Part shown: positions 187-49,002 of the stretch, one piece after another
Layout: each line of letters begins with the position of its first letter
Position numbering within the stretch: position 1 is the first letter of the stretch
DNA from: a bacterium
GTDB lineage: Bacteria > Patescibacteriota > Patescibacteriia > UBA9570
Length of the DNA: 64,000 nucleotides
NCBI GenBank assembly: GCA_030698395.1
Contig: JAUYKW010000026.1
Location: 12,797-76,796, forward strand
Direction: 5' to 3'
Program-made: the position numbers and the translations under genes
The notes under the pieces: generated by a model
The model's database searches: none
Told to the model about the DNA's origin: nothing
What the model saw: the letters and a program-made list of their open reading frames with translations, nothing else

Positions 187-264
187 AAAAAACGCCACCC
201 ATGATTGGTAGCGCTCAAAAATTAGACTAACACTCTTTATCTATACTTGTCTAGTACAAATTTC

Positions 265-588
265 TCACTTTAATAATTCCTCATTCAGTCTGGTTTGAAT
301 CTCGGATAATTTATTCATATTATCATTAGCATGTACCTTATTACGTTTAGAATATCCACATTTTTCACATGTATGTTTGATAATCCAATCTCCATGCTCG
401 AGCTGAATATCTGCAACAAACATTATGCCGCCACATTCTGCTGCACGATCTCCAGGCTTTACATCTACATGCTGAGATGAAAAACACTCAGGACAATGAT
501 TGGTATATCCATCACCTGATACATAAAATCCGCACTTAATACAATTAAAATCTTCTTTACGTCTTTGAAATCGTCTTTCCTTTAACAT
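265..588 (-). CDS. RNHCP-domain Cys-rich zinc-finger protein
   Basis: 107 aa with multiple CxxC pairs and a TNHCPEC motif typical of the RNHCP domain. Confidence 0.5.
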   Translation of the reverse strand: MLKERRFQRRKEDFNCIKCGFYVSGDGYTNHCPECFSSQHVDVKPGDRAAECGGIMFVADIQLEHGDWIIKHTCEKCGYSKRNKVHANDNMNKLSEIQTRLNEELLK

Positions 589-1075
589 CTTTTTCTTCTA
601 AAAAAATCTTTATTAACCAAATCCCAATTGCACTAATTATATAAACATCAGCTAAATTAAATACACTCCAAAAAGATATAGAAATAAAATCAACCACCCC
701 CCCATAAATTGCCCGATCAACAAGATTTGCAAATGCTCCTGACAAAATAATTGTTACTACTGCAAACTCAAAATAATTCTTATGCTGCATGGCCTTTACC
801 AACAGAACCATCAATATAATTACCACAATAACTATCAAAGAATAATACAAGGGTGGAAACAAAGGTAGGCTCAATGCCATGTTCGTATTCAAATGCAATT
901 TTAAAAATAAAATATCAGAAATAATATCAAACTGTTCATCTGGATGCATGACAAAATACCACTTAGTAACTCTATCTAATAAAAATAGTCCAAGAGCAAA
1001 TGATAGTGTACCTGCCAATTTTGTTATAACAAAATTCCCACCATGAACAGAGGATGTTTGTGACTTTTTTTCCAT
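557..1075 (-). CDS. lspA: lipoprotein signal peptidase (signal peptidase II)
   Basis: 172 aa polytopic membrane protein with a conserved FNLAD motif and LspA-like topology. Confidence 0.8.
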   Translation of the reverse strand: MEKKSQTSSVHGGNFVITKLAGTLSFALGLFLLDRVTKWYFVMHPDEQFDIISDILFLKLHLNTNMALSLPLFPPLYYSLIVIVVIILMVLLVKAMQHKNYFEFAVVTIILSGAFANLVDRAIYGGVVDFISISFWSVFNLADVYIISAIGIWLIKIFLEEKDVKGKTISKT

Positions 1076-1082
1076 GTTTACT

Positions 1083-1454
1083 TTACGGTTTTGGAATAGC
1101 AGTTTCTGCTGCTGGATTTACTTGCAAACGTTCTACAGAAATTGGCTCGCCTGTTTTAATATCCATACCATATGTACCATCCTCTATTCGTTCTAAAGCA
1201 GCTTCAACTTTTTTAAGATAATCTTCTAACTGACCTGTAATTGATACATTAACTTCGTATGCTTGAACTTCATCTGGCGAGTCTGATCCAGCATCTAAAT
1301 AGTTATCATCACCAAAGTTTGGAAACTTTGCTGCCCATTCACCTGGTACATGATCACCGATGTCTTTATCCGCAACCGAAGATAGTTCTTTTTCGATCTC
1401 TACTTTAAGATCTGAAAGTTTATTTTTAAATTCGTCTAATTGTACTTGTTCCAT
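1083..1454 (-). CDS. DksA/TraR-family (YteA-like, no Cys4 finger) regulator
   Basis: 123 aa with an N-terminal coiled coil and a C-terminal EDGTYGxDxxTGEPI motif typical of DksA-like proteins lacking the zinc finger. Confidence 0.5.
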   Translation of the reverse strand: MEQVQLDEFKNKLSDLKVEIEKELSSVADKDIGDHVPGEWAAKFPNFGDDNYLDAGSDSPDEVQAYEVNVSITGQLEDYLKKVEAALERIEDGTYGMDIKTGEPISVERLQVNPAAETAIPKP

Positions 1455-1498
1455 GTTTATACTATATATAATAAAAATTGTTTTATCTAGTAGGAAGA

Positions 1499-1723
1499 CT
1501 ACTCTTTGGCAGTTGCATCCACCTCAGCTTGCTCTGCACCAGCTTTTCGTTCTGCATCACGTAATGCTCTAGCTGCTGCTATAGCATCTCGAATGTCACC
1601 TTCTCGAGCACGTTGTCCAGCATCACCTTGTGGCACATCCTCATGTTTTTTTTCTTCATCCACTTCTAAATCAAAGTCATTATCTGATTGAATATTAATA
1701 TTTTGATTATTTTGAAAATTCAT
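1499..1723 (-). CDS. small acidic hypothetical protein (74 aa); the ORF-track start at 1822 is rejected in favour of the ATG at 1723
   Basis: The ATG at 1723..1721 is preceded by AGGGGTAAAT (SD-like). The upstream extension overlaps a terminator hairpin. The C-terminal half is locally GC-enriched and Ala/Arg/Glu-rich. Confidence 0.4.
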   Translation of the reverse strand: MNFQNNQNINIQSDNDFDLEVDEEKKHEDVPQGDAGQRAREGDIRDAIAAARALRDAERKAGAEQAEVDATAKE

Positions 1724-1733
1724 ATTTACCCCT

Positions 1734-1760
1734 AAAAAACACTTAGGGGTGTCCCCCCTG
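1734..1760 (-). terminator. intrinsic terminator or attenuator hairpin immediately upstream of the small ORF
   Basis: The minus strand reads CAGGGGGGACACCCCTAAGUGUUUUUU: a 5-bp GC stem, a 5-nt loop and a U6 run. Confidence 0.4.
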
Positions 1761-2165
1761 ATTACTATGGCCACAAAGGACCAGTTTTTTTGTAATAGTG
1801 CGAAACACCCCGATATCTTCAAGTTAACCTTGTTTAATCCCTTTTACAAGGGATCAAGCAATGGATTTCCGCTTGAAGACGATTGGAAGTGCAACGTACC
1901 CACGTAAGCCGATGTCCGTAGGATACTCCCGCAAATGGGGACCCTCTAGTATGCCGCTGCCCCTCGATTTCACCTAGAGTGAAATATAATTGAGGGCTGG
2001 CGGAAAAATACATTTTTGTTTTTGTTTTAGTACGGCTTGCATACCAGAGAAATGATTATTTCCAAGTTGTAATACAGTTAGAAACAATGAGCTCTCTGTT
2101 ATTCGTACTGGTACGAAGCATTTAAGTTTTAAAGAACGACTTGTTTCTTCATTCGTTACTGTAGA
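1745..2165 (-). ncRNA. candidate structured non-coding RNA or long 5' leader (roughly 400 nt, class unknown)
   Basis: No credible ORF on either strand. It is bounded by a near-consensus sigma70-type promoter (TTGACC-17-TATACT) at its 5' end and a terminator hairpin at its 3' end. Internal GC-rich helices include CCGCUGCCCCUC...GAGGGCUGGCGG enclosing a GAUUUCACCUAGAGUGAAAU hairpin (plus-strand reading; the complementary helix forms in the minus-strand transcript). Confidence 0.3.
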
Positions 2166-2169
2166 TTAA

Positions 2170-2198
2170 AGTATAGCATGATTTTTGTCTATGGTCAA
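2170..2198 (-). promoter_or_regulatory. sigma70-like promoter (-35 TTGACC 2198..2193, 17-nt spacer, -10 TATACT 2175..2170)
   Basis: Read directly on the minus strand. It would drive leftward transcription through the non-coding region towards the dksA-like/lspA genes. Confidence 0.5.
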
Positions 2199-2205
2199 CT
2201 ATATA

Positions 2206-2241
2206 GATATAAAAATAGCTAACATTAGCTATTTTTATATC
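2206..2241. promoter_or_regulatory. 36-bp perfect palindrome GATATAAAAATAGCTAACATTAGCTATTTTTATATC immediately upstream of the -35; candidate operator or UP element
   Basis: Perfect dyad symmetry. It contains the 14-mer ATAAAAATAGCTAA, which recurs upstream of a TTGACA at 29025..29038. Confidence 0.4.
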
Positions 2242-2326
2242 CTTGACAACACTATCAACAGGTTAATCCACAATGTTTTTATCCAATAAACTTATCCACA
2301 ATCTGTGCATAAGTCATGTTATAGTT

Positions 2327-2893
2327 TTAAGATTGCTTTTTTATGATGTCCACTACCTCAGTTGCAGCGTCGTCTAGCTTTCCTTCCTCATTTACGACTA
2401 AATAATCCCAATCCAAGAGGTTTTTTAGCTCTTTTTCGGCTGTATTAAGCCTTTGTTTTATTACTTCTTTAGAGTCTGTCTCTCTATTAATCAATCTTTT
2501 CTCCAAATACTCATAAGAGGATGGCATGATAAATATAGTTTTTGCTTCTGGTAACATCTTTTTATATGATCTTGCACCCTGCGGATCTACTTTCACTATT
2601 ACTACATCGTGATCTGTTAGCTTCTGTTCCACCTCATCTTTTGTACAACCATAGAGATTTCCATAAACTTCGGCCCATTCAATCATTTTACCGTCATCAA
2701 TTAACTCTCTAAAGGATTCTTGATCGATAAAATAATAAGGAATACCTTCTGATTCATCTAATCGCATAGGCCTCGTACTAGTAGTAATAACCTGACTAAA
2801 AACTAAGCCTTGTTCTCTTACTTCATTAATCACAGAATCCTTACCTGCTCCAGATGGCCCTGTGACTACAAATAATTTACCTTTATTAGCCAT
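2327..2893 (-). CDS. gmk: guanylate kinase
   Basis: P-loop GPSGAGK, the TTRPMR motif and a length of 188 aa. Confidence 0.9.
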   Translation of the reverse strand: MANKGKLFVVTGPSGAGKDSVINEVREQGLVFSQVITTSTRPMRLDESEGIPYYFIDQESFRELIDDGKMIEWAEVYGNLYGCTKDEVEQKLTDHDVVIVKVDPQGARSYKKMLPEAKTIFIMPSSYEYLEKRLINRETDSKEVIKQRLNTAEKELKNLLDWDYLVVNEEGKLDDAATEVVDIIKKQS

Positions 2894-2912
2894 AGTTTTG
2901 AGTATTTTAAGC

Positions 2913-5063
2913 TTATTTACCTAATAAAGCCTTACGTGATAGAGAAATTCTACCAGTTCTAGAATCTACTTCTAATACTTTAACTTCAATAACTTCTCCC
3001 TCTTTAACTACATCCGATACTTTATTAATTCTTTCCTGAGCTATTTCTGATATGTGAACCATACCATCTTGATTTGGTGTTAACTGTACAATTGCACCAA
3101 TTTCCTTTTCTACATTGTTTCTATCAGTAATAATCTTTAAAATCTTACCTTTATAAACTTCACCAGGCTGGATTTCTTTTACAATTCCTTCAATAATTTC
3201 TAGTGCTTCAGCTAAGGCAACGTTATCTTTGGTTGTAACGTATACAAGACCAGTCTCTTCAATGTCAATTTCCACGCCAGTTTTCTCAATAATACCATTG
3301 ATAACTTTTCCACCGGGACCAATAAGTTCACCAATTTTCAATGGATTAATTTGAATAGTCTTAATTTTTGGTGCATATTCTGATAATTCTGCACGCGGTT
3401 CTGGAATAACAGCTGTCATTTTCTCTAATAGCTCTAATCTAGCAGTTTTTGCCTTTTCCAGAGTATCACGTACCATATCTAGAGTTATTCCATCAAGCTT
3501 AATGTCTAATTGTACAGCAGTTACGCCTTCTTTAGTGCCTGCAACTTTAAAATCCATAGATTCTTCATGATCCTCAACATCTTGAATATCAGTAAGAATT
3601 TTATAATCTTCCTTATTACCTTCGCCATTTAGCGCTAATCCCATTGCAATTCCGGCAACTGGGCTTTTAATTGGTACACCAGCATCCATTAAGCATAAAG
3701 TTGAACCACAAATGGAGCCTTGTGATGATGAACCATTAGAAGATAATACATCTGATCGAACTCTAATAGTATATGGAAACTCACTTTTTGCAGGTAATAC
3801 AGGAACTAAAGCTTTTTCAGCTAATGCCCCATGTCCAATTTCACGTCTTCCTGGACCACGCATTGGTCTTGCTTCACCTACAGAAAATGGTGGGAAGCTA
3901 TAATGATGAAAATAATTTCTCTTCTCATCATGTCTCATAGTATCTAGAATCTGCTCATTACTTGGAGAACTTAAAGTAGCAACAGATAAGATCTGTGTAT
4001 CACCACGAGAAAACATACCAGAACCATGTACACGTGGCACTCCGCCAGCTTCTACATTAATTTCTCTAATCTCTTCAATTCCGCGATCATCTACTCGCTT
4101 TCCATCTGCAAAAATACGTTTAATCATTGCCTCTTGAAATAAAAAATCCAAGTGCTTAACAGCAAATTTAGCAGCATCTGCTTGTTCTTCAGTAAATGCT
4201 TCTTTTAATGCTAAATTAGCATTAGACATTCTAATGGCTTGTTCACGTTTATTACCAGGGCCAAATAATTCGCTACCTCTTTCTGCAAAATATTTTACTG
4301 CTGCTTCTTCACCAACTTTCTTCATCTCTAACTGCTCTGCAGTTAGTTCAGGATCGGTCATTACTCTCTTTTCTAGCCCAATTTCACTACCTATTTTATT
4401 AATTAATTCAATTACTGGTTCAATTTCTTTTAAGCCAAATTCAATTGAATTATATACTGCATCTTCACTTGCTTCACTACCATCTGCTTCAAGCATGATA
4501 GTCTCCATATCACGACCAGAAACAAACACATTCAAATCTGCCTCTTTAACTTCCTCTGCTGATGGATTTAATTTCATTTCACCATCCTTTGTGGTAACTA
4601 CACATCCACCCAAAGGTCCTGCCCATGGAATATCAGATACTGTTAAAGCAGCTGATGCACCAATTAAACCAGCAATATCTGGATCACATGAAGGATCATA
4701 AGATAAAACACTAACAGTTACTTGAATATCATTCCGAATTGACGTATTTGTAAATAATGGCCGGATACATCTATCAATTATACGAGCAGATAACATTGCT
4801 TGATCTGATGGTCTACCTTCACGCTTAATAAAACGAGAACCAGAAATTTTTCCGGCTGCAGACATACTTTCTTGAAATTCAACCATTAGAGGGAAATAGT
4901 CGATTTCTCCTCGGACAGATTCTGACATTACAGCTGTAACCAAAACCATGGTATCGCCATACTGGACAGTACATGACCCATTAGTTTGCCCTGCGTATCT
5001 ATTAAACTCAATAGCTAAAGGCTTTCCGCCCCATTCTAACTCGTATTTCTTAATATTTTTCAT
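2913..5063 (-). CDS. pnp: polynucleotide phosphorylase
   Basis: 716 aa with two RNase PH domains plus KH and S1 domains. Classic rpsO-pnp synteny. Confidence 0.95.
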   Translation of the reverse strand: MKNIKKYELEWGGKPLAIEFNRYAGQTNGSCTVQYGDTMVLVTAVMSESVRGEIDYFPLMVEFQESMSAAGKISGSRFIKREGRPSDQAMLSARIIDRCIRPLFTNTSIRNDIQVTVSVLSYDPSCDPDIAGLIGASAALTVSDIPWAGPLGGCVVTTKDGEMKLNPSAEEVKEADLNVFVSGRDMETIMLEADGSEASEDAVYNSIEFGLKEIEPVIELINKIGSEIGLEKRVMTDPELTAEQLEMKKVGEEAAVKYFAERGSELFGPGNKREQAIRMSNANLALKEAFTEEQADAAKFAVKHLDFLFQEAMIKRIFADGKRVDDRGIEEIREINVEAGGVPRVHGSGMFSRGDTQILSVATLSSPSNEQILDTMRHDEKRNYFHHYSFPPFSVGEARPMRGPGRREIGHGALAEKALVPVLPAKSEFPYTIRVRSDVLSSNGSSSQGSICGSTLCLMDAGVPIKSPVAGIAMGLALNGEGNKEDYKILTDIQDVEDHEESMDFKVAGTKEGVTAVQLDIKLDGITLDMVRDTLEKAKTARLELLEKMTAVIPEPRAELSEYAPKIKTIQINPLKIGELIGPGGKVINGIIEKTGVEIDIEETGLVYVTTKDNVALAEALEIIEGIVKEIQPGEVYKGKILKIITDRNNVEKEIGAIVQLTPNQDGMVHISEIAQERINKVSDVVKEGEVIEVKVLEVDSRTGRISLSRKALLGK

Positions 5064-5072
5064 AATATGTTG

Positions 5073-5131
5073 GCCTTACCGAGAGACTGTAGACTCCCTA
5101 AATGGAGAATCTAGATGTCTTTAGGTAAGGC
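5073..5131 (-). promoter_or_regulatory. long hairpin in the rpsO-pnp intergenic region (GCCTTACC ... GGTAAGGC)
   Basis: An 8-bp perfect inverted repeat encloses about 43 nt. The position matches the rpsO terminator / pnp leader processing hairpin known from other bacteria. Confidence 0.45.
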
Positions 5132-5147
5132 ATTTAATTAATTGTTC

Positions 5148-5798
5148 TTAATTACTTATTTTTATATATTGATCTAAACTTTCCAGAAAATCATCTGAGC
5201 CTCGGAAATCGTACAAATAATCGTCTGAAATTACTTGAACCACTGATATTTCTGAACCATCCTTTGCACTTGCTATGGTTAATCTTTCAGCAACTTGATT
5301 ACCTACACTAATTGTTTCTCTATCTAGTACATCAGTTTCATTAAGAGAAATACCCTCATAACTACTAGGCATTACGCTTAAAGTATTCTCTGGTTCAAAT
5401 GTATATGTAGTTATCTCATCGTATTTAGCAGTAGTAGCAGGCACTAAGACTTCTAGGTTGAATTCTGTTAAATCTATTCCTGCTCCGCCTGTAGCAGTGA
5501 TATCGCTAACATCCTCTGCAAGTGTTTCATCTTGATTCTCTGCTTTATCTAAACTATCAGAATCATCTGTTTCTGAATCTGCTTCATTATTAATATTTGT
5601 ATCAACTGAATCTACCTCAGTATCAGAATCATCTGTGACAAATTCTTCGTCATTGGAATTGTTTGAATCTAGATAATTTTCTTCCTGCTTAAAATCAGTT
5701 GATTTTTGAGAAACCACAGTAACTGCAATGATTACAATCAATCCAGCGACGATAACGAATATTCCAAAAATTGTACCTTTTTGCTTTCGCTTAGACAC
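5148..5798 (-). CDS. membrane-anchored, highly acidic hypothetical protein
   Basis: N-terminal TM helix followed by a D/E/S/T-rich low-complexity region and a C-terminal globular part. Confidence 0.5.
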   Translation of the reverse strand: MSKRKQKGTIFGIFVIVAGLIVIIAVTVVSQKSTDFKQEENYLDSNNSNDEEFVTDDSDTEVDSVDTNINNEADSETDDSDSLDKAENQDETLAEDVSDITATGGAGIDLTEFNLEVLVPATTAKYDEITTYTFEPENTLSVMPSSYEGISLNETDVLDRETISVGNQVAERLTIASAKDGSEISVVQVISDDYLYDFRGSDDFLESLDQYIKISN

Positions 5799-6081
5799 TA
5801 TCCTTTAATTTAAGGGCTTTAATCAAAGTTTCGTAAGATCCTTTATCTTCCTTTTTTAAATATCTCATTAATCTACGACGTAAACCAACTTTCTTCAACA
5901 AACCACGCCGAGAAGAAAAATCCTTTTTATGTTGTTTTAAATGCCCAGTAAGATCCTCGATTTCGTATGTAAGTAACGCGATCTGTACCTGAGAAGATCC
6001 AGTATCACCTTCTTTGATGGCGTATTTCTGGATAATTTTGTTCTTTTGTTCTTTTGATATCATATTGCTTCTACTGATCAT
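5791..6081 (-). CDS. rpsO: 30S ribosomal protein S15
   Basis: TGSSQVQIALLT...HLKQHKKDFSSRRGLLKKVGLRRRLMRYL. The true start is probably the second Met, at 6063. Confidence 0.9.
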   Translation of the reverse strand: MISRSNMISKEQKNKIIQKYAIKEGDTGSSQVQIALLTYEIEDLTGHLKQHKKDFSSRRGLLKKVGLRRRLMRYLKKEDKGSYETLIKALKLKDSV

Positions 6082-6223
6082 AGCGATTATTCCGAGAAGT
6101 CGTTAGTTTTACGTAACGAAATCAACCAAGAATATCGACAGCTAATTAATTTTGTAGGCGTGAGTATACCAACCGAACCACAAAAGGTCAAGTGATCAAA
6201 ACAAGTTAAATTTCCTCACTAAT

Positions 6224-6790
6224 TTATTTCTTTGGAGACCTGCCAACTGGCCGAGGCTGGGCTCTTTTTTGCTGAACTCGAGGTTTTTGAGGTCGAGCAG
6301 TGCCAATTAATATATTGTCCTTTAATTCTGCTAAATCAATGAACTGGTCCGCTTCTTCTCGTAATTGAATTGATGAAGATGGTCCAAACGCTACTGCTTC
6401 AGCTCTGCAACCTAAAGATTTTACATGTTCCAATAAAGGAGCAAAATCACCATCACCCGAAACTACTGAAATTACATCTAACTTATCTGCCAACCGCATT
6501 ACATCCATCGCGATGCCAACATCCCAATCACCCTTCTTGTTGCCGTCGTAGAACGTTTGTAATTCTTTTGCCCTAACTTCTAAGCCCCTCTTCTTTAATG
6601 AATCAAAAAAAGATTGTTCTGCACTATGTTCTGCTCTTATAACATAAGCAATGGCTCGTACTAAGGTTCTATCACCCACTGCTACTTCCAATACTTTGCC
6701 AAAATCAACTTTCTGGTTATACAAAGCCTTGGCTGAATAATATAAGTTTTGAATGTCGATAAATACACCGACTCTTTGTTGAATATTCAT
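6224..6790 (-). CDS. NYN-domain (LabA-like) protein
   Basis: Motifs VFIDIQNLYY, DVGIAMDVM and VSGDGDF. Confidence 0.7.
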   Translation of the reverse strand: MNIQQRVGVFIDIQNLYYSAKALYNQKVDFGKVLEVAVGDRTLVRAIAYVIRAEHSAEQSFFDSLKKRGLEVRAKELQTFYDGNKKGDWDVGIAMDVMRLADKLDVISVVSGDGDFAPLLEHVKSLGCRAEAVAFGPSSSIQLREEADQFIDLAELKDNILIGTARPQKPRVQQKRAQPRPVGRSPKK

Positions 6791-6968
6791 ATAATGATTA
6801 TAGCATAGTTATTAATTGTATCCGCATTCTAACCATTGACAAAACTGGTTTTTTAGTGTATGCTTCTTGCGCGTTAGTAGAGAAAGCTGCCATCCCGGTA
6901 GTAGTTCCTACCCAAGGAACTTGCTCTCTCCCCGAGAGTTTTTCTTCGAACCGCAGAAGGAAACACTG

Positions 6969-7238
6969 ATGCTGAAGTTGAATATGCTGTTCCGGAAGCT
7001 GATGGGCGCTGTGGCTTTTATCGGGTTCTTCCTGGTCGCCACCCTGGCGCCGGATGTCCCGGGTCACGAGATGTCCACTCTCGCCATGATCGTCGCCTAT
7101 GCGACTGGTCTGGCGATGATCATCATCCCCTTCGTCCTGAACTACTTCCTCGGCTGGGGATGGTTCGACGAGATGGAGAGCGACGACGAGATCGACACAA
7201 GGGAAGATCTCGAAACGAACGAGACCTGGTCGAAGTAG
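6969..7238 (+). CDS. small 2-TM membrane protein with acidic C-tail, on a high-GC islet
   Basis: SD AAGGA lies 7 nt upstream of the ATG at 6969. There are two hydrophobic helices, and the tail reads GWGWFDEMESDDEIDTREDLETNETWSK. A GC hairpin terminator follows. Local GC is far above that of the flanks. Confidence 0.5.
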   Translation: MLKLNMLFRKLMGAVAFIGFFLVATLAPDVPGHEMSTLAMIVAYATGLAMIIIPFVLNYFLGWGWFDEMESDDEIDTREDLETNETWSK

Positions 7239-7263
7239 ACCGAACCCCCGTCCGAAAGGGCTG

Positions 7264-7308
7264 CCGCCTCTGGAGATCGCGCGATGCGATCGTTTGTACA
7301 GAGGCGGC
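7264..7308 (+). terminator. GC-rich hairpin (GCCGCCTCTG ... CAGAGGCGGC) after the small TM gene
   Basis: 10-bp perfect stem read from the sequence. Confidence 0.45.
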
Positions 7309-7333
7309 GGCTACCCAACTTTTATATATTCCG

Positions 7334-7357
7334 ATTCCCAATTTGGGAATTTTTTTA
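7334..7357 (+). terminator. intrinsic terminator ATTCCCAA-T-TTGGGAAT followed by T7
   Basis: Perfect 8-bp stem followed by TTTTTTT. Confidence 0.5.
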
Positions 7358-7422
7358 TTTTCAATTTCGTGGATTGTTATAAATATATTTTCTTATTCTT
7401 TTTAATTCATATTCATTCCGAA

Positions 7423-7668
7423 TTATTCTGTCATGAAAACGTGGTTGCCATGCGAAATGATTCCAATTATTTTTATTACCCCATCTTGTAACTGCAGATT
7501 TATATGATCGAACAATTGTTGATATGGAATTTGATTTTGGTGAAACATTAGAATAAAAATTTTATTTGTTACAGAATCGTTTCGTTTTTGGGTAGAGACG
7601 TTGCATGCAACGTCTCTACGACGATCATTAATCACAATGATCCCGTGTACATGATTTGGCATTATCAC
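7423..7668 (-). pseudogene. degraded HUH (IS200/IS605 Y1 or RAYT-like) transposase fragment
   Basis: The ORF begins exactly at MPNHVHGIIVI (HuH motif). The upstream region and the catalytic Tyr region are missing. It contains a REP-like palindrome. The surrounding 7.3-7.7 kb is AT-rich junk. Confidence 0.35.
7592..7619. repeat. 28-bp perfect palindrome GTAGAGACGTTGCATGCAACGTCTCTAC (REP-like, variant centre)
   Basis: Shares GTAGAGAC/GTCTCTAC arms with the palindromes at 19348 and 25259. Confidence 0.6.
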
Positions 7669-7852
7669 AAATGCTCATTAATTAATATATCAAAAAATAC
7701 ATTTTATACAAAAAACCGCTCATTATAATATGAAGCGATCTTTCAAAAAAATTCTGGAGGAAGCCCATGTGTATGTCATGCTGGGAATGAACCCACACGA
7801 TCATGTTCACACGAGCAATCCTCGTTACTGGTTCACTACCGCGGCTGCGACT

Positions 7853-8029
7853 CTACCAGAGGTACGTATTCTCAGTCCGAGACCGATCTTCTGCGTCAGG
7901 ATCATTCTCTTTCGCGTAATCGTCTGCCCAGTCCTGAGCCACAGCACCCAAGACCTTCGCGAAGAAAATCATGGTACCCAGGGACGCAACGCTAGCGCCA
8001 ACTTGCGCCAGCAACACAACAACAGTCAT
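7853..8029 (-). CDS. small 1-TM membrane protein with acidic C-tail, on a high-GC islet
   Basis: GGAG lies 6 nt upstream of the ATG at 8029. The protein is MTVVVLLAQVGASVASLGTMIFFAKVLGAVAQDWADDYAKENDPDAEDRSRTENTYLW. The tail resembles that of the 6969 gene. Confidence 0.45.
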   Translation of the reverse strand: MTVVVLLAQVGASVASLGTMIFFAKVLGAVAQDWADDYAKENDPDAEDRSRTENTYLW

Positions 8030-8365
8030 CTTCAGCTCCACAATACGCAGGTTCTGGAAGGAACTGCGGTAGGATTAACGAGGATTGGCTATGTAGCCAA
8101 AAAAAATTTTACTATATTAATAATATTTGTCAATAGTATTTTTTAGATAAAAATAAAAAACGACCGGTTCTGATTTCAGCAATGGTCGTGAAAGCTACAA
8201 ATTCAGTTGTTAAGTTTATGGGTACCTGTGACATTCAAAATGATTATCACAGGCGTTCCTCCTTGCAGCGTCAACCGCCAGAACGAACTAGCCCGTGGTG
8301 CATCAGTTTGAAGCCGAAATAAATCGAGCTCCTAACATCATTACACCACGAGCATCGTCCCAGCT

Positions 8366-8512
8366 TTACTCCTTCGGCTTCAGTCGATTTTCTTCGTACA
8401 CCGGATCGGTCCGGGCCCGATACATCATGAATGCTGCCAGACCGAGCGAGCCACCGATGAAAACGGTAATCAGGAGCAGAGTTAACAGGGGCGAGTTCTC
8501 GATGAATGTCAT
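8366..8512 (-). CDS. small 1-TM membrane protein with charged C-tail, on a high-GC islet
   Basis: Strong SD GGAGGA lies 5 nt upstream of the ATG at 8512. The protein is MTFIENSPLLTLLLITVFIGGSLGLAAFMMYRARTDPVYEENRLKPKE. Confidence 0.5.
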   Translation of the reverse strand: MTFIENSPLLTLLLITVFIGGSLGLAAFMMYRARTDPVYEENRLKPKE

Positions 8513-8595
8513 AACAGTCCTCCATAGACAGATATTATCGAGATGCACACCTTATTAAATAATCCGCTATCTGTAAAGTTCACAAGAATCATGAA

Positions 8596-9540
8596 GTGTC
8601 GTACAATAGTTATATGACTGTAAATAAATTAATTATAGAATTTCTAGAATACTTAGAAATTGAGCGCAATCGTTCTGCTCAAACTATTAAAAATTATGAT
8701 TATTACCTGAAAAGGTTCCTAAAACTTTCAAAAGTTAAAACTCCGCAAGATATTACTCAAGATAAGGTAAGAAAATATCGTCTACAATTAAACCGTATCA
8801 CCAACCCAAATACAGGAGAACCTCTTAAGAAAAAAACTCAAAATTATCACATGATTGCACTGCGAGCTTTTCTAAAGTATCTCGCTAAACGAGATATCAA
8901 ATCAATGGCAGCAGAAAAAATTGAATTAGCCAAACAAGAAGATCGTCAAATCGAATTTCTAGATGGTAGTGAACTTGAACGACTACTAGAAGCTCCACTT
9001 CAAGTAAAAGGTAATGAAATTATAAAATTACGAAATAAAGCAATCTTAGAACTGTTATTTTCTACAGGATTACGTGTTTCAGAATTAGCGCATTTAAAAA
9101 TTTCTGATATCAATTTAAAACGCGAAGAATTCTCTGTGCGTGGTAAAGGCGGTAAAGTAAGAATAGTATTTTTATCCGAACAAGCCAGATACTGGCTAAA
9201 AAAATATCTAGATAAAAGAACTGATATTTCGCCATACATGTTCGTTGCCCATGATCGCGCTCAATCAGCTCGTGAACAAACTGATAGCGCACCAATTACA
9301 TCACGATCCATTGAGCGTATGGTGAGTAAATATGCTAGAGTTGCCGGCATTATGAAAAAAATCACTCCACATACACTACGTCATAGTTATGCTACTGATC
9401 TACTACGTAATGGCGCAGATATTCGATCTGTTCAAAGTATGCTGGGTCACTCTTCTATTACCACAACTCAAGTTTATACTCACGTTACGGATCAACAATT
9501 AAAAAAGATCTATAAAAAATTCCACAACAAGAAGACATAG
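8596..9540 (+). CDS. tyrosine site-specific recombinase, XerC/XerD family
   Basis: R...HTLRHSYAT...GHSSITTTQVYTHV catalytic box. It lies next to the accessory junk region. Confidence 0.85.
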   Translation: MSYNSYMTVNKLIIEFLEYLEIERNRSAQTIKNYDYYLKRFLKLSKVKTPQDITQDKVRKYRLQLNRITNPNTGEPLKKKTQNYHMIALRAFLKYLAKRDIKSMAAEKIELAKQEDRQIEFLDGSELERLLEAPLQVKGNEIIKLRNKAILELLFSTGLRVSELAHLKISDINLKREEFSVRGKGGKVRIVFLSEQARYWLKKYLDKRTDISPYMFVAHDRAQSAREQTDSAPITSRSIERMVSKYARVAGIMKKITPHTLRHSYATDLLRNGADIRSVQSMLGHSSITTTQVYTHVTDQQLKKIYKKFHNKKT

Positions 9541-9560: not shown

Positions 9561-11324
9561 TTATAAAGTTTGGAGATAACGCAAAGCTTTATTTCCACCC
9601 ACTTTAAACCTGCCATCACCAGAACTTTTTAACACATTGCTTTTTTGAAAAATCTTTACTCGCATTTGCCCCACTCCTGTTAAATCCAAAAGTAAACTTT
9701 TCGCACGTTGAGTATTCCAATATGCGTACATATCATAATGGCCTTTATGAAATCTATACAAATATGCATCCGCTATTTTAGACGCATATAATTCATCTAT
9801 ATAAACCGTACCCTCTTCCAAGCTACCGTCTGCATCATCCAAAATAAATGAATCGAATGTTAATGGATAATCTAACTTACCGTCGTTATTACCGCCCCAA
9901 CTTCCTTGATAATTCTTAAGTTGGATTGTATAGAACAACCATTCTTTTGGCATGTATCCTAAGTTGTATTGAAATGTTTCACCTTTATTATCAGTTATTC
10001 TAACTCTTAAAGTTGTATCATCATTATCTCCCTTTACTTTAAATTGCAAAGCTTTAATCCTTCCTGGCAACTGCTTCTGTAATGCAATCGGAGCATAACA
10101 ATTACCATTTCCTGTAAAATTATAGTACACCTTCATTGTGCCTCCATCATGATCATCTAGAGCTCCACTAGTACATTCAGTTTCAGAAAAATGCCATCCC
10201 TTGCTGGAAACAAAATTATCAATAATTCTATATTCTGGTAAATTCATTCCTTCAAAGTACTTTCTATTCAAATTACGTTGCATAAATTTGTAGGCATGAT
10301 ATGCAGGCTTAGGTTTATACTCATGATCCACTAATCCAAATTGAGATTCTAAATAGGACTCATCCGCAGAAGAATCTGTCATGGTGTACCAAAATACTTT
10401 TTTTACATTTGGAATAGATAGTGCAATAGTGTAAAATCGCATTAAATATTTAGCCTGCATATTCTCTGTGATACCTCCAGAATAAGTTGTCCATCCAGCT
10501 TCCGTAATCCAAATTGGTGTATCAGTAAAACCGTGTTTATTCATTACTGCCTTAACATTATAAATGTCTACATATAACGGATTCAATCCAGCACCAGTAC
10601 GCTCTGGCATATAGTTAAAATTTCCATCGATAGTTCGGTAAGGATGTATAGCCACAACTTCAATATCCGATTTATCATCTACTTCTGAAAAAAATTCATC
10701 TAACCAAACAGCATCTGCTCCTGATACACCACCCAAAATTACTTTTGCATCTGGATTGGCAGATTTGATTTCATCTACTGCTGAAGAATAATAGGTTGCG
10801 TACTCTTTCAAGCTACCTTTCCAAAAACCTTCATGATTTGGCTCATTCCAGATCTCCCATGTATCAACAGATCCAGCATAATGCTCTGCAACTTTACCAA
10901 CGTAATCTTTCCAAGCATCTAAATCTGGCGGATAAAATTCTGAATCTGATGCGCCCGGATTTGTTGATGCCCACGAACTACTATATGTTAATAATCCTAA
11001 CATCTCAATATTTTTGTCCTGATACGCTTGAAGCACATTATCATAAGTAGTCCAATTATAATTACCGTCAGATGGTTCTATAACATCCCAATTAAATTGC
11101 TCTCTACCCCACTGAGCTCCTGTAGCCTCTACCTTTCCCAATACTGTATCCCAATCCGCCTCATCAACTCGCTCTCGCAAATGAACATTCACGCCAAAAG
11201 CATCTTTGATTCTATCTGAATTCGCTGAAGCAATGCCTGGCATAAATAGTATGCTAAATAACATACCTATAAATACTGGGGCTATGATAGATTTTATGCG
11301 CATAATTTTAATCTTTATAAGCAT
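9561..11324 (-). CDS. secreted clan GH-A (GH5-like) glycoside hydrolase with C-terminal extension
   Basis: Signal peptide, WEIWNEPN (acid/base Glu) and IWITEAGW (nucleophile Glu). The likely true start is the Met at 11303, which avoids overlap with cca. Confidence 0.7.
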   Translation of the reverse strand: MLIKIKIMRIKSIIAPVFIGMLFSILFMPGIASANSDRIKDAFGVNVHLRERVDEADWDTVLGKVEATGAQWGREQFNWDVIEPSDGNYNWTTYDNVLQAYQDKNIEMLGLLTYSSSWASTNPGASDSEFYPPDLDAWKDYVGKVAEHYAGSVDTWEIWNEPNHEGFWKGSLKEYATYYSSAVDEIKSANPDAKVILGGVSGADAVWLDEFFSEVDDKSDIEVVAIHPYRTIDGNFNYMPERTGAGLNPLYVDIYNVKAVMNKHGFTDTPIWITEAGWTTYSGGITENMQAKYLMRFYTIALSIPNVKKVFWYTMTDSSADESYLESQFGLVDHEYKPKPAYHAYKFMQRNLNRKYFEGMNLPEYRIIDNFVSSKGWHFSETECTSGALDDHDGGTMKVYYNFTGNGNCYAPIALQKQLPGRIKALQFKVKGDNDDTTLRVRITDNKGETFQYNLGYMPKEWLFYTIQLKNYQGSWGGNNDGKLDYPLTFDSFILDDADGSLEEGTVYIDELYASKIADAYLYRFHKGHYDMYAYWNTQRAKSLLLDLTGVGQMRVKIFQKSNVLKSSGDGRFKVGGNKALRYLQTL

Positions 11325-19416: not shown

Positions 19417-19992
19417 TTACAATCCTAGAAACACCCTCGCATATCCTACGGCTGTAGGATGTATACCAGCAAAGCCAGTTGCTAATGCTATAGCATCATC
19501 GTTGCCGTTATTATTCACATCTCCACATAAAATTAATGTTCCAAACAAACCATTTGAAATGGAAGATTTTTTATTTGACATTAATTTCGTTTTAAGCGAA
19601 TATTTAGCCACACTTTTTTCGAAATATGCCACCGCTTGTGTGATTCCTGTAAAGGAAACACCTAATGAGAGGACAGAGAGGTGATATTTTACAGAACATT
19701 GAGAGTCAGTGAAGCTACGGCTGCTTGGGCATACGGCATGGCCAGGCTCCGAACCCGTAAGCGAGAAACAGTCATCAATCCGAGGGACAACATCAGCACC
19801 TGCACGATCCACCGATCCGGACCGTCTAGTGCCGTCCTGATGCAGATCCCAAGGAGAAGAAACGCAACTCCGGTACGGTACCACCTGCACCTTCGAGTGT
19901 ACTCCCACCGTGGAGAACTGCTGGTGCGGAGTATTCTGGCCGACAGCGCCAGAAGCATTCCGAAAGTGAGGAGGAACAAGACCCGAGAACAT
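19417..19992 (-). CDS. uncertain chimeric ORF: AT-rich 3' part (dockerin/FG-GAP-like GDVNNNGNDD) fused to a high-GC 5' part
   Basis: Composition switches abruptly around 19650. The high-GC part (19680-20040) has overlapping ORFs on both strands. Confidence 0.25.
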   Translation of the reverse strand: MFSGLVPPHFRNASGAVGQNTPHQQFSTVGVHSKVQVVPYRSCVSSPWDLHQDGTRRSGSVDRAGADVVPRIDDCFSLTGSEPGHAVCPSSRSFTDSQCSVKYHLSVLSLGVSFTGITQAVAYFEKSVAKYSLKTKLMSNKKSSISNGLFGTLILCGDVNNNGNDDAIALATGFAGIHPTAVGYARVFLGL

Positions 19993-20043
19993 CCTGCACC
20001 AATGGATTTCTCGGGTCGTGTTCTTATTTGCTATAATTAAGGC

Positions 20044-22030: not shown

Positions 22031-22136
22031 GAGTATAACAGTATACCGTTCTTTTAGAGACTAATCAATTGTAATCTCTACAAGGACGGATCGAACATGA
22101 ACATGATAAATTATCAGTGGTTGTACGCCCTGGATC

Positions 22137-22547
22137 CTACTGTTTCATTCCCACCTGGATCGCATCAACCACATCCTGATGCATCAACGGTCCCTCCGCC
22201 AAGCCAGCATACACACCCTTGCAGAACTGAATCTCCAGTTCATGAAGAGCAACTCTCAAAATCAGGCTCAGCTCGTAATCATAGATCTGCGTCAGATCTG
22301 GGAATTGCGGGATACCCCATCGACTATCCAACTTCCCCGAGAATGGATTAGTGCCCGTCAGGTTGATATGATCCGTAATCACCATCAGCCGGTGTGGCTG
22401 AAAGGATGCATTGGTGAGTACCAACACCGAGGCACCCCACAACCGCATGACCCGTACTGCATGCACCACGACGTTCGCGAAATGACCTTCGTACAGATGC
22501 ACTCGACCACTGAGAACGACCACTGCGACATCATATGGCCTAATCAT
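22137..22547 (-). pseudogene. truncated purine nucleoside phosphorylase (PNP/MTAP family) fragment, high-GC
   Basis: VLVLTNAS...ITDHINLTGTNPFSG...GVYAGLAEGP match the PNP core. Both the N- and C-terminal regions are absent, leaving 136 aa against an expected roughly 270. Confidence 0.5.
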
Positions 22548-22644
22548 TGTCTATCCCATCCTGTATTATTGATGAACATTAAGGTTAGCTCGATAATATT
22601 ATAGAAAAACTTAATTCAGGTCAATTTATTTTCCTAACCAATTC

Positions 22645-23813: not shown

Positions 23814-23935
23814 AGTAATAGCATAACATACCTAAAAACATTGACTAGGTAATCCAAAACTAGTAATGTGTTGGGCACGATCTGTACATTTCACCGCCCA
23901 AATATTACAAAAGGGCACAAACCGAGAGGATTCTC

Positions 23936-25111
23936 ATGGGTACCCAGCACGTTAGTCGCAATGTCATCATCGTCGGCGATTCTCCCAACAAGAACGCTGG
24001 CGAACATCATCCCTTCACCATGGTAGACGGAGCCATCTACCACACTGACATGGTCGGCATCGATCCCCGAGCCAGCGCCGTCAACTACGGCCTCGCACGC
24101 ATCTCCGGCTATGGAGCCTGGCGCCGTCCCGAGGACGATACGCACTGGATGTTCCGCCCGGAAGACCACATGACGCGCATTCACCAGAACGCTTTGGCCA
24201 TTCCCGTTCTGGGAGATTTCCCGAGCACAAACATGCTCGTAGACTGGTCCATAACCAGTCTGGGCCTCGGCATCCCTCACCTCACGCGGGCCAAGGACGT
24301 CTACGGACGGACGCTAGTGGTGCAGGGTGGCGTCGCTCTCGGTGTTGGAACCCGCGGTCACGGCCACGTGATCAACTTCACGCGAGACCTGACAGAATAT
24401 GTTCCGGCTGAAGGGCTGGATCTGCTGTTCCCTGGCATGCTCTGTCGCCGACCCAACATTTTCATGGGTCGCCCCTTCGAAAAGGCGGCCGGCAACTACG
24501 ACTTGGCCCACTTCTGGAAAGGCGTCGTTGCCAAGGGACTAGGCTTCAACGAAATTCTGATGCTCAACTGGAACGGCACCGAAATCGCCGAGACCAGTGG
24601 TAGCATCCCGGTAGCCATCGTCCGCCTGTCGGACAAGAAAATTCAGATGCGTGTGCCACGCCTGGAATCCGGCCGACTGAATTCGATCACCACTGACACA
24701 CTCATCTACTTGGCCCATAAGCTGGGCTGGGAAGTAATCGTGAACCAACGCCTGACATTGGATCACCTGATCCATGCGGACGAACTCTGGGTGGCTGGTT
24801 CCTGGAGTGGTCTTGCTAGTGTGAGGAACATTAGCTTGGACCAACGCTGGATGCGTGAAGCACCCATCCTTCCACCTGAGATCTTCAGAGACGGAGTAGG
24901 GCCGGCATACAAAGCGTGGCTGGATGAAAATTTTCAGCCCGTGAATGCTCGCAAACTGGGCTGGACCCCTTCCTTCGCACCTGGTCCACTCGGTACTCAG
25001 CTCCGCGAACTCTACTGGGGCGTGGTGCGCAACCGCCCAGAATTCCGGCGCATCGATCGTCCCAGCAACTGGAATGTCAAGGTGAACCCGATCGTCCCAA
25101 ACACGGAATAA
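23936..25111 (+). CDS. aminotransferase class IV (BCAT/D-amino-acid aminotransferase fold)-like protein, high-GC
   Basis: FRPEDHMTRIHQNA, NWNGTEIAETSGS, ITTDTLIYLAHKLGWEV and ADELWVAGS resemble fold-type IV PLP enzymes. GC is roughly 58 percent, against about one-third in the backbone. Confidence 0.5.
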   Translation: MGTQHVSRNVIIVGDSPNKNAGEHHPFTMVDGAIYHTDMVGIDPRASAVNYGLARISGYGAWRRPEDDTHWMFRPEDHMTRIHQNALAIPVLGDFPSTNMLVDWSITSLGLGIPHLTRAKDVYGRTLVVQGGVALGVGTRGHGHVINFTRDLTEYVPAEGLDLLFPGMLCRRPNIFMGRPFEKAAGNYDLAHFWKGVVAKGLGFNEILMLNWNGTEIAETSGSIPVAIVRLSDKKIQMRVPRLESGRLNSITTDTLIYLAHKLGWEVIVNQRLTLDHLIHADELWVAGSWSGLASVRNISLDQRWMREAPILPPEIFRDGVGPAYKAWLDENFQPVNARKLGWTPSFAPGPLGTQLRELYWGVVRNRPEFRRIDRPSNWNVKVNPIVPNTE

Positions 25112-25258
25112 AGATCTAGGAGGACACCTGGAGCCACGTACCAATGTACGTAGCAACAGGTGGGGGAAATTGTTATGCATGCATAACGTTTCCCCGCCTC
25201 CCCAATGGTTATTAGCTACTTAATAGCTATCGGTGAGAATCAAAATAACTTAAATAAA

Positions 25259-26392: not shown

Positions 26393-26580
26393 ATGTTTAT
26401 AAATCCAATATTTATCAATAAAATTACTAACAAATATACCCTATAATAGGGCTTTTGTCAATACCTAAAGCATAAATAGATAACTTCCGGCCAATAAGAA
26501 CCATATATGATTCGCATTGGGGGAAGACGGAACCAGCTGTTTGAGAGCGTAATTCCGTCTGCCGTGTCCTCCTCACGGCA

Positions 26581-27012
26581 TCATGCCGACTGTTGGCACG
26601 TGAACACGAAGTGCGTCCTGTCCCATTTCACTTCCAGTCTGGTACCGACCTGAATGTTCAGCTCATCTCGAATCCTGCTGGGAATCGTCAAACGACGCTG
26701 ACCGTCCGTATTTACGGGTTCACCAGCGAAGGCCTGAACTCCGTCCAGAATCCGACCAGCCGGCGTCTGGACCATCTCGATCCACTCGGACATAGGAAAC
26801 ACATGGAGTGAACCATCCCGGAACGAAGTCATGTAGAACGTTTCGTCCGGTCCGTACTCTCCGTACAGTGGATTCATGAAGTGATTGGCAAGCATCAGAC
26901 GACCCTTCTGATCGACTGTCGCAGTTCGGACACCAAAAATATAAACACACATCTTGCACATCCTCCTCTTCTGTTGGGTGCAGAAACTCCCAGGGGACGG
27001 GAGTAGTTCCAA
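26581..27012 (-). CDS. MraZ-like protein (orphan, high-GC)
   Basis: Two DxxGR-type motifs (VDQKGRLMLANHF and TDGQRRLTIPSRIRDEL). The likely start is near 26952-26961. It is not adjacent to mraW. Confidence 0.5.
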   Translation of the reverse strand: MELLPSPGSFCTQQKRRMCKMCVYIFGVRTATVDQKGRLMLANHFMNPLYGEYGPDETFYMTSFRDGSLHVFPMSEWIEMVQTPAGRILDGVQAFAGEPVNTDGQRRLTIPSRIRDELNIQVGTRLEVKWDRTHFVFTCQQSA

Positions 27013-27084
27013 GGGATAGGAACGTCGTTGATGCCACAGTGGCCCCTATAGATTAAAGACCATATACGGCCTTGTCAACACAAA

Positions 27085-27549
27085 TTATTCCTCGATAATG
27101 TCGATTGGAATATCCAAAGATTCCTGCAACTCTTGCAATGGAGAACCAAATAATAATCTAGAAAATTTAGAACGATCTCTTTTTGTAATAATAATTCTAT
27201 TAATATCTTTCTCTTGCGTAATTTTTTTAACTTCTGTAATCAAGGAGCCTGTTTTTAATATTTTTTCTGATGCAACACCGCGTTGTTCTGCTAGCTCTGC
27301 AATTTCCAGCAACATCCTATCTCCCCGTTCAATATATTCATCAGCTAACACCTTAGCTACTACCTGACTAGCAGCTCTATCTAAAAAACTATTTTGTTTA
27401 ATATCGGAAATTGCTTCATTTGTAATAACATCATCTACTACAAATAAAATTATCAACTTTGTTTTATCTTGTTCCGCTAAATCTAAAGCTTGTTTAACTG
27501 TAGCTTTAGATTGTCTTAATGTTGATAATACTAATAAATTCATATTCAC
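27085..27549 (-). CDS. universal stress protein (UspA family)
   Basis: Usp fold motifs. It lies adjacent to the permease gene. Confidence 0.75.
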   Translation of the reverse strand: MNMNLLVLSTLRQSKATVKQALDLAEQDKTKLIILFVVDDVITNEAISDIKQNSFLDRAASQVVAKVLADEYIERGDRMLLEIAELAEQRGVASEKILKTGSLITEVKKITQEKDINRIIITKRDRSKFSRLLFGSPLQELQESLDIPIDIIEE

Positions 27550-47957: not shown

Positions 47958-48193
47958 GCTTTTAAATTTATGCCGATCGAATACAAATTATTCAAACGAC
48001 CAAATAGTATAGCGGACTCTTGCCTATTTGTCAAGAGGTATGATAAAGCCAAGCATCAATAATGTACGTATTTAAGCTAACATTAGCAAAATTCTATGTT
48101 TTTAAACTCTTTATAAGAACGTATCAATAAATACGAACTTGACTCATATCTAGTTATTCACTACGGTGATGGTCCGGTTGCACTCATAGCTAT

Positions 48194-48721: not shown

Positions 48722-49002
48722 CTCACAAGTCAACCGGACAGGAGGAGTTCCGGACGAAATCACACTAGCAGGCATGGTAGCAATACCCACCCGCAAAGAG
48801 ATCTCGTCCGGTACCCCGCACACAATCTTTTTCAACATCTTCAACTTATTTCATCTATTCCAAGACGCGATAAATCGCGTCTTTACTCTTTTTCAATACA
48901 TACTGCCCTTGACTTTAGGGTCTTTTTTTACTACGGTTGTAGCCTGGTCGCAAGCAAATGTAACCAGATTCCACTGAAACTCTCACCTCCAAAGGAGCAG
49001 AA

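Follow-up and report, generated by a model that had tools for sequence, protein, structure and literature searches.

Small membrane-protein genes on GC-rich islets beside an NYN nuclease gene in a Patescibacteria genome: candidates for strongly folded single-gene units

Results

Three small ORFs lie on separate GC-rich islets

We analysed a stretch of 64,000 nucleotides from an AT-rich Patescibacteria genome (contig JAUYKW010000026.1, positions 12,797 to 76,796; hereafter the window, 36.8% GC), and concentrated on a spacer of about 1.8 kb that contains three short open reading frames (ORFs), pep1, pep2 and pep3, on three separate GC-rich islets. The spacer lies between the gene of an NYN-domain (LabA-like) nuclease (6224-6790, minus strand; Pfam NYN on an identical Logan contig, PADLOC NYN match with E 1e-11) and that of a Xer-type tyrosine recombinase (8596-9540, plus strand; Phage_integrase E 3e-46), and the genes near it include those of polynucleotide phosphorylase (PNPase) and ribosomal protein S15. 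Islet 1 (6854-7357, 54% GC) encloses pep1, islet 2 (7748-8098, 52% GC) pep2 and islet 3 (8216-8535, 50% GC) pep3. An original prediction, made from the letters of the window, had taken the three ORFs for a small paralogous family of toxin- or holin-like membrane peptides, delivered on separate high-GC fragments into a junk region. We arrive at a different account, which we favour with somewhat better than even confidence: pep1, pep2 and pep3 would be three independent, strongly folded single-gene units for small membrane proteins, the GC of which is kept by selection at the RNA level, with pep1 and pep3 being old and pep2 a later arrival.

All three ORFs exist with the translations that had been proposed for them. 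pep1 (6969-7238, plus strand) encodes 89 residues with two predicted transmembrane helices, a PDVPG loop and a W-x-W-F motif; its hydrophobic stretches cover residues 9-31 and 37-64, its G+C content at third codon positions (GC3) is 0.83, and a Shine-Dalgarno (SD) sequence AAGGA stands 7 nt before the ATG. An AlphaFold2 model gives a helical hairpin (helices at 2-25 and 37-61) with a disordered tail and a mean predicted local distance difference test (pLDDT) score of 69. pep2 (7853-8029, minus strand) is a 58-aa ORF with hydrophobic N-terminal residues 1-31, an acidic tail, a GC3 of 0.59 and the SD GGAG 6 nt before the ATG. pep3 (8366-8512, minus strand) encodes 48 residues and is predicted to be single-pass, with a hydrophobic stretch at residues 3-31, the motif MM-x-x-A-x-TDP after the helix, a GC3 of 0.67 and the SD GGAGGA 5 nt before the ATG. 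The hydrophobic stretches are thus borne out in all three proteins, but the acidic tails ascribed to them hold less well: the tail of pep3 is not acidic, with a net charge of about 0, and the C-terminal acidic tail of pep1 is not conserved among its orthologues.

Pfam, NCBIfam, PADLOC and PHROGs offered no family for any of the three peptides. We discarded a LapA_dom match of pep3 (E 0.043) and a P13 porin match of pep1 (E 0.003, with 17.6 bits where the cut-off is 100), putting both down to hydrophobic composition. Exact look-ups of the three peptides and their alternative starts found none on record; pep1 alone is known, as the NCBI hypothetical protein Q8P90_05495, and pep2 and pep3 are annotated nowhere. 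Small proteins are systematically missed by annotation, and the ORFs of this spacer are an example. The supposed kinship among the three did not survive comparison. The original prediction had itself named a lack of mutual similarity as telling against a family, and no pair gave a BLASTP alignment at E<=100; nor did blastn or tblastx detect any DNA or translated similarity of the islets to one another or to seven other GC-rich islets in the window.

The window is matched with 100% identity from 224 to 8132, both junctions of islets 1 and 2 included, by an independent Logan contig (L001), so these islets are not an assembly artefact. We also asked how often the combination of features arises. 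A filter for ORFs of 28-130 aa that have an SD, a hydrophobic stretch and GC3>=0.55, applied to the 64-kb window, picked pep1, pep2 and pep3 cleanly, together with five spurious-looking ORFs: one antisense within the PNPase gene, one with a TTG start and without a real SD (19689-19979), and the rest overlapping or internal to the ORFs of GC-rich islets at 48-50 kb. A stricter filter (ATG or GTG starts, GC3 at least 0.35 over the local background), run on about 380 kb of other low-GC Patescibacteria loci, picked only the orthologues in the nearest reference genome described below. The three-gene pattern exceeds chance.

pep1 and pep3 are conserved in place

In a HMMER scan of 1.84 billion representative proteins, the only other relatives of pep1 were two clusters, P0002 and P0003 (E ~4e-8, phmmer). 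Both derive from Patescibacteria Logan contigs (L086 and L087), and each is encoded divergently beside an NYN gene. An uncalled homologue stands in the same place in the nearest reference genome (L002; GTDB contig JAJRVJ010000028.1, a Patescibacteria metagenome-assembled genome), with 30% identity and a pairwise E of 3e-12; it shares with pep1 of the window the motif N-[YH]-F-L-G-W-x-W-F-[DE]-E. Hence in 4/4 genomes, namely the window, L002, L086 and L087, pep1 is encoded divergently and immediately upstream of the NYN gene, and all four genes carry GGAG or AAGGA about 6-9 nt before the ATG. The orthologues range from 63 to 100 aa. Their alignment shows as invariant the PDVPG loop between the helices, P54, W63, W65 and F66, yet the loop of L002 reads EPPG. 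Conservation by codon position follows the order 2 > 1 > 3, which argues that pep1 is protein-coding.

The identity ranks of pep1 mirror those of the neighbouring NYN protein. L086 and L087 are 81% identical in NYN and 48% in pep1; the window compared with these two gives 71-72% and 31-43%, and L002 compared with the others gives 65-69% and 21-30%, respectively. The L087 contig keeps the full S15-PNPase-guanylate kinase synteny of the window, with PNPase being 66% identical between the two. Word-indexed homology searches with pep1, and with a profile of pep1 and its L002 homologue, found only pep1 itself. A family hidden Markov model recovered members only at the known loci among 86 sequences, and none in 80 metagenomic NYN loci collected by an NYN-profile scan. 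Since these 80 loci hold no relative of pep1 (nor of pep2 or pep3), the pep1 family is confined to a narrow clade. The best reading of pep1 is that of an ancient, vertically inherited partner of the divergent NYN gene, and from these comparisons we propose that it defines a rare, previously unnamed two-helix family, positionally tied to an RNA-metabolism cluster (S15, PNPase and NYN) of ultra-small bacteria. Unannotated small membrane-protein genes as such are already known; what is new here is a rare membrane-protein family linked to NYN.

L002 keeps the gene order of the locus (CCA-adding enzyme, glycosidase-like gene, Xer, spacer, NYN), with 65% identity to the window in NYN and 77% in Xer. 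Directly upstream of its NYN gene lies one GC-rich islet, which holds the pep1 and pep3 homologues in convergent orientation; neither ORF is in the protein databases, and neither was ever called as a gene. The pep3 orthologue (L002 9300-9425) is syntenic and has the same UGGAGGAC SD, the same convergent orientation and the MM-x-x-A-x-TDP motif (pairwise E 3e-5; tblastn E 4e-4). pep3 is accordingly best read as a long-standing inherited resident of the spacer. With pep1 and pep3 conserved in the same position in related genomes, "junk region" is not an apt description of this DNA.

In L086, the place that pep3 takes in L002 is occupied by a 68-aa ORF (1123-1329, minus strand) that runs convergently to the pep1 homologue, encodes two hydrophobic segments and has a GC3 of 0.87. 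With an hhalign probability of 0.2%, it was not accepted as a homologue of pep3. Small membrane ORFs rich in GC seem to gather in this position downstream of pep1.

Silent sites stay GC-rich across saturated divergence

The GC3 of pep1 is similarly high in the other genomes, at 0.87 in L002, 0.80 in L086 and 0.90-0.95 in L087, and that of pep3 reaches 0.86 in L002. Neighbouring host genes lie at 0.18-0.32 in the window, about 0.37 in L086 and about 0.5 in L087 (0.18-0.51 overall), and 43 of the 49 window ORFs of at least 150 aa have a GC3 below 0.3. First and second codon positions of pep1 and pep3 are host-like in GC; the excess is confined to third positions. There, a gain in C-ending codons goes along with one in G-ending codons, both at two-fold and at four-fold sites. 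We rejected translational selection for C-ending codons as a cause because of this joint rise, and selection for rare codons because GC3 peaks (0.90-0.95) in L087, where G- and C-ending codons are not rare.

Silent sites are saturated among the four genomes: the proportion of synonymous differences (pS) in NYN is at least 0.74, and the third-position identity of pep1 is 0.40-0.52, about the expectation for random draws from a G/C-only alphabet. The third positions of pep1 have turned over many times while remaining G or C. Because silent sites are saturated yet still G or C, and because synteny is kept, the high GC of pep1 and pep3 reflects maintenance over time rather than recent transfer. 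The GC-rich tract of pep1 coincides at both ends with predicted signals: GC steps up right after the conserved pep1 promoter described below and drops to 0.23 past the pep1 terminator region. An extreme GC3 held against an AT-rich background across saturated divergence, in a GC-rich tract that coincides with the predicted transcription unit, is the second new observation made here. Neither mutation bias nor transfer readily explains how one short gene keeps a GC3 of 0.8-0.95 across deep divergence, with 0.2-0.5 around it; the pattern suggests that selection acts on the mRNA itself. A GC-rich islet next to a recombinase gene need not be foreign DNA.

Each ORF has its own predicted transcription signals

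A promoter scan placed a promoter of pep1 at 6836-6864 (plus strand; TTGACA-17-TATGCT), and each of the four pep1 genes has a conserved promoter-like element TTGAC[AT]-17-TA[TG]G[CG]T in front of it. The predicted divergent promoter of NYN (6842-6815, minus strand) has a -35 box that overlaps the -35 box of pep1. These overlapping opposite-strand boxes (TTGACAA one way, TTGTCAA the other), at 6815-6864 in the window, are conserved in L002 at about 9917-9950; judging from this arrangement, the two promoters could compete for RNA polymerase. The predicted 5' leader of pep1 (6871-6968, plus strand; about 98 nt, 51% GC) would form hairpins with the C-rich loops AUCCC, ACCCA and UCCCC, and one of its hairpins, at 6923-6939, was flagged as terminator-like by the scan. 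In the predicted fold the SD of pep1 pairs with the upstream UUUUCUUC, with a mean pairing probability of 0.86 from SD to AUG. The two terminators that had been proposed downstream of pep1 are present in tandem at 7255-7361 (plus strand), as a hairpin at 7260-7311 (arms 7260-7272 and 7299-7311) and a second at 7333-7351 followed by a T run, and together they end islet 1.

The predicted promoter of pep2 (8106-8133, minus strand; TTGACA-16-TAAAAT) matches 11/12 consensus positions and lies in an AT-rich spacer, with islet 2 starting just downstream. Its putative terminator (7700-7748, minus strand), a hairpin followed by a U6 run, was read from the sequence, went unflagged in the terminator scan and forms in the minimum free energy fold of the transcript (394 nt). 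For pep3, a putative terminator read in the same way, an ACGACC...GGTCGT hairpin with a following U run (8145-8189, minus strand), escaped the scan because its loop exceeds 8 nt. The pep3 leader is short and its 3' untranslated region (UTR; 8190-8365, minus strand) long, GC-rich and hairpin-rich. The sequences of leaders and UTRs show no conservation among orthologues. A consensus scan for antisense sigma-70-like promoters within the islets found none in the window, L002 or L086, a scan that weak or unusual promoters, or an RNA encoded elsewhere, could escape.

The islet mRNAs are predicted to be unusually stable, at about -0.35 to -0.47 kcal/mol per nt compared with -0.17 for the S15 mRNA, roughly twice as much. 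Against dinucleotide shuffles, the fold z-scores of the three predicted transcripts are -5.56, -2.85 and -3.42, the last being that of pep3 (fold of 8200-8540, minus strand). Shuffling synonymous codons in the four pep1 mRNAs gave z = -1.25, -1.37, -3.41 and -2.08, consistent in direction with a combined z of about -4.

The predicted pep2 mRNA has a further feature, a long-range helix between its two ends. A 12-bp perfect inverted repeat joins a 5' arm at 8076-8087 (minus strand; about nt +12 to +23 of the predicted mRNA, after a 5'-terminal hairpin) to a 3' arm at 7816-7827 (minus strand), 26 nt past the stop codon. The arms, CAATCCTCGTTA and TAACGAGGATTG, bound a 272-bp unit. Most pairs of the helix have probabilities of 0.8-1.0 under three assumed 3' ends, and a repeat of at least 12 nt occurred in 0/300 shuffles of the transcript. 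In the predicted fold the SD and AUG of pep2 lie in internal loops and are not sequestered.

pep2 belongs to a lineage-specific insertion

The L002 spacer between pep1 and pep3 measures 188 bp, and among the three ORFs only pep2 is lineage-specific in this comparison. Between islets 1 and 2 of the window lies a decayed IS200-like (Y1_Tnp) transposase gene (about 7365-7670, minus strand), frameshifted and without its N-terminus, recovered by three-frame translation. This is the HUH-transposase fragment of the original prediction; its Y1_Tnp match (E 3e-4, 21 bits) falls just under the Pfam cut-off of 23. As both pep2 and this remnant are missing from the 188-bp spacer of L002, they form a lineage-specific insertion.

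pep2 has no relative, not even its own sequence, among 5.8 billion proteins. Its four-fold sites are T- and G-rich, and with its lower GC3 this would fit a younger or partly drifted acquisition. Given its absence from L002 and the lack of a relative in those proteins, pep2 could still be an acquisition. Its coding status is the least certain of the three, the evidence for it being a predicted promoter, an SD and hydrophobicity. In the Logan assembly a 138-aa ORF antisense to pep2 (7730-8146, plus strand) was called instead; it spans the pep2 promoter and the AT-rich spacer, reads as the hydrophilic antisense of a membrane helix and is probably a false gene call.

The transposase remnant carries a 28-nt perfect palindrome at 7592-7619, GTAGAGACGTTGCATGCAACGTCTCTAC. 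Two Planktothrix agardhii plasmids match a 29-nt stretch that includes this palindrome at 100% identity; this was the sole match in our plasmid and phage DNA searches, which returned nothing donor-like. The palindrome looks like a repetitive extragenic palindromic (REP)-like or transposon-end hairpin common to different phyla.

Discussion

A model of compact, GC-rich transcription units

Taken together, we suggest that each unit would run from a promoter in AT-rich DNA through a GC-rich 5' leader with an SD, a short ORF and a GC-rich 3' UTR to a terminator. The high GC would then be a property of the transcript, extending from about the transcription start to the terminator, and selection on the RNA would hold it at silent third positions. 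The outcome would be compact, strongly paired, nuclease-resistant mRNAs, long-lived in an AT-rich cell and sparingly translated. The peptides would insert into the membrane, pep1 presumably with its N-terminus inside, the PDVPG turn outside and the variable tail inside. pep2 would have come later, by an insertion beside an IS200-like element that has since decayed. Gene order, with pep1 conserved as the divergent neighbour of an NYN ribonuclease gene that adjoins rpsO-pnp, hints at a link to RNA turnover.

Several observations weigh against this account. Promoters, transcript ends and translation are all predicted, and the sample is thin, with pep1 in four genomes only and pep3 in two only. 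Synonymous-codon shuffling has a modest effect in pep1 and none in pep3 (z = +0.56 and +0.37), and most of the extra stability is thus GC content itself; the modelled folds lend modest support to a specific selected structure. At 0.48-0.86, the pairing probabilities of the SDs do not clearly exceed that of the S15 control (0.60). pep2 is without a comparator, and the 138-aa ORF on its opposite strand has the same codon-position GC pattern. The GC could conceivably stem from GC-biased gene conversion or from replacement that recurs at a hot spot. Other islets of the window hold larger genes that look foreign, so that GC-rich DNA may be taken up by this genome as well.

Other explanations of the islets

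Recent horizontal acquisition would mean that three foreign high-GC fragments, each with a chance small ORF, entered a recombination-prone spacer next to the Xer recombinase and the transposase. We judge this unlikely. Local GC 15-20 points over the genome next to recombinase and transposase genes is what horizontally acquired islets look like; the composition is strongly atypical, the tyrosine recombinase and the IS200-like remnant adjoin, the orthologous L002 spacer is without pep2 and the remnant, the silent-site usage of pep2 is intermediate, as if partly drifted to that of the host, and other high-GC islets of the window hold Aminotran_4, PNP and MraZ-like genes. For pep1 and pep3, the comparison across genomes argues against it. 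pep1 keeps its position and orientation by NYN in four genomes that differ as far as 65-81% NYN identity and 66% PNPase identity (window against L087), pep3 is syntenic in L002, and the GC3 of pep1 stays at 0.8-0.95 despite saturated silent sites and backgrounds that differ between 0.2 and 0.5. Moreover, the GC boundary falls at a conserved promoter; unlike acquired islets, the composition of pep1 and pep3 is inherited in place and bounded by the predicted transcription unit rather than by repeats or attachment sites. An inverted-repeat and repeat search found no repeated junction sequence flanking the islets. Plasmids, phages and viral contigs gave no donor-like match (scans of IMG/VR and INPHARED found no relative), and the protein libraries gave only P0002 and P0003. 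As far as sequence comparison can tell, synteny and saturation largely refute recent transfer for pep1 and pep3, so that of the proposed delivery on separate high-GC fragments an acquisition of pep2 alone could stand. Tandem integration at a Xer/dif site was likewise rejected, there being no repeated junction sequences and the pep1 gene of L086 not adjoining Xer.

The other three alternatives concern what the units do rather than where they came from. Type I toxin-antitoxin-like modules, in which tight mRNA folding and an unseen antisense RNA check a membrane-damaging peptide, remain doubtful for the locus as a whole. By definition, a type I antitoxin is an antisense RNA, encoded in cis or in trans, which base-pairs with the mRNA of the toxin (PMC8594479), and in Helicobacter pylori the full-length AapA1 toxin mRNA is closed by 5'-3' pairing, which stabilises it and limits translation (PMC5416894). 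The units here resemble the toxin mRNAs of hok/sok, AapA1/IsoA1, TxpA/RatA and TisB/IstR in specifying a small hydrophobic peptide with a charged tail (pep2, 58 aa, and pep3, 48 aa, fit the usual size of <60 aa), in being single-gene units each with its own predicted promoter and terminator, and in their stable, paired mRNAs, as predicted; the pep2 ORF is even predicted to be enclosed by 5'-3' pairing as in full-length AapA1, and the pep1 SD is predicted to be paired (0.86), though the S15 control gives 0.60. They are unlike these systems in that the islets of the window, L002 and L086 have no detected antisense promoter, the SD and AUG of pep2 are unsequestered, each peptide is single-copy in the window with no multicopy distribution and no PADLOC match, and pep1 is longer (63-100 aa), has two helices and keeps its position over order-level divergence, unusual for selfish, patchy type I loci. 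A type I role is possible, mainly for pep2. That the islets are structured non-coding RNAs with incidental ORFs is very improbable. In AT-rich genomes structured RNA typically stands out by its high GC, the fold z-scores are significant, GC-rich DNA has few stop codons and hence offers ORFs of 50-140 codons on both strands, pep2 is without a homologue, and another islet of the window (19652-20037) folds well without a convincing ORF. But Rfam gave no match at E<=1 in 6000-9000 (in the whole window, only tRNAs reach the gathering score), leader and UTR sequences are not conserved in orthologues, and pep1 shows conservation at the protein level in its motifs, the 2 > 1 > 3 order, frame-specific GC3 periodicity and a conserved SD-ATG, with pep3 likewise; a purely non-coding reading is contradicted for pep1 and pep3 and possible for pep2. 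Even less can be said for holin-like leftovers of a degraded prophage or lysis cassette, which we give next to no credence. Class II holins are small, with two helices and a charged C-terminal tail, and pep1 is like them in size, helices and tail, as pep2 is in having one long hydrophobic segment with a charged tail. There is, however, no endolysin or phage gene nearby, the neighbours being NYN, the transposase remnant and Xer; the best PHROG match (E 0.08) is not meaningful; IMG/VR and INPHARED phages hold no relative; and pep1 is conserved near housekeeping RNA-metabolism genes in four genomes. Context and phage searches disfavour the holin part of the original prediction. Its picture of small membrane-peptide genes that are separately expressed, each on an islet of its own, is plausible, and its anatomical description of the spacer mostly holds.

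Relation to known small membrane proteins and small RNAs

AcrZ, MgtS and KdpF are chromosomal small regulatory membrane proteins of <100 aa. The spacer peptides are like proteins of this type in size, in having one or two helices, in forming independent small units and in being often omitted from annotation; they differ in showing no sequence relationship to a named family and in the extreme, conserved G/C enrichment at the silent sites of pep1 and pep3, which to our knowledge has not been described for such proteins. Staphylococcus aureus RNAIII/hld, psm-mec and SgrS/SgrT are dual-function small RNAs that encode membrane-active peptides. As with these, a GC-rich RNA, here predicted to be structured, carries a short ORF, and the C-rich loops of the pep1 leader are reminiscent of the UCCC seed motifs found in small RNAs of staphylococci; the pep1 leader sequence, however, is not conserved in orthologues.

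Returning to the single-gene units with RNA-level selection, we put forward, quite tentatively and as a possibility we hold to be less likely than its opposite, that this clade actively keeps G and C at the silent sites and in the UTRs of a few short units, as gene-specific "armoured" mRNAs. Their hyper-structure would act against AU-directed RNA decay, possibly by the adjacent NYN enzyme, or would restrain translation of a membrane-active peptide. If so, local GC content would serve in practice to reveal overlooked genes of small proteins in genomes that are reduced and AT-rich.

Other GC-rich islets in the window

Islets with recognisable genes lie at 22101-22565, 23887-25221 and 26478-27086, carrying a purine/uridine phosphorylase fragment (136 aa), a class IV aminotransferase-like gene (391 aa, GC3 0.68) and an MraZ-like gene (143 aa, with no rsmH following), respectively. 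The islet at 19652-20037 (53% GC), which is without a convincing ORF, has z = -4.22 on the plus strand and a hairpin GACCCGAGAA...TTCTCGGGTC followed by a T-rich tract; it ends just before a 216-aa phosphoribosyltransferase-like gene at 20044, finds no match in Rfam and, going by its modelled fold, may be an undescribed leader or non-coding RNA. Three more GC-rich islets lie side by side at 48149-50275, with short AT-rich gaps between them, and hold one ORF each, of 175, 143 and 139 aa, with GC3 values of 0.81, 0.68 and 0.76. No Pfam, PADLOC or PHROG family was found for these ORFs, and the 143-aa and 175-aa proteins are weakly similar to each other (E 0.02). As in the spacer of pep1, pep2 and pep3, each islet there holds a single gene.

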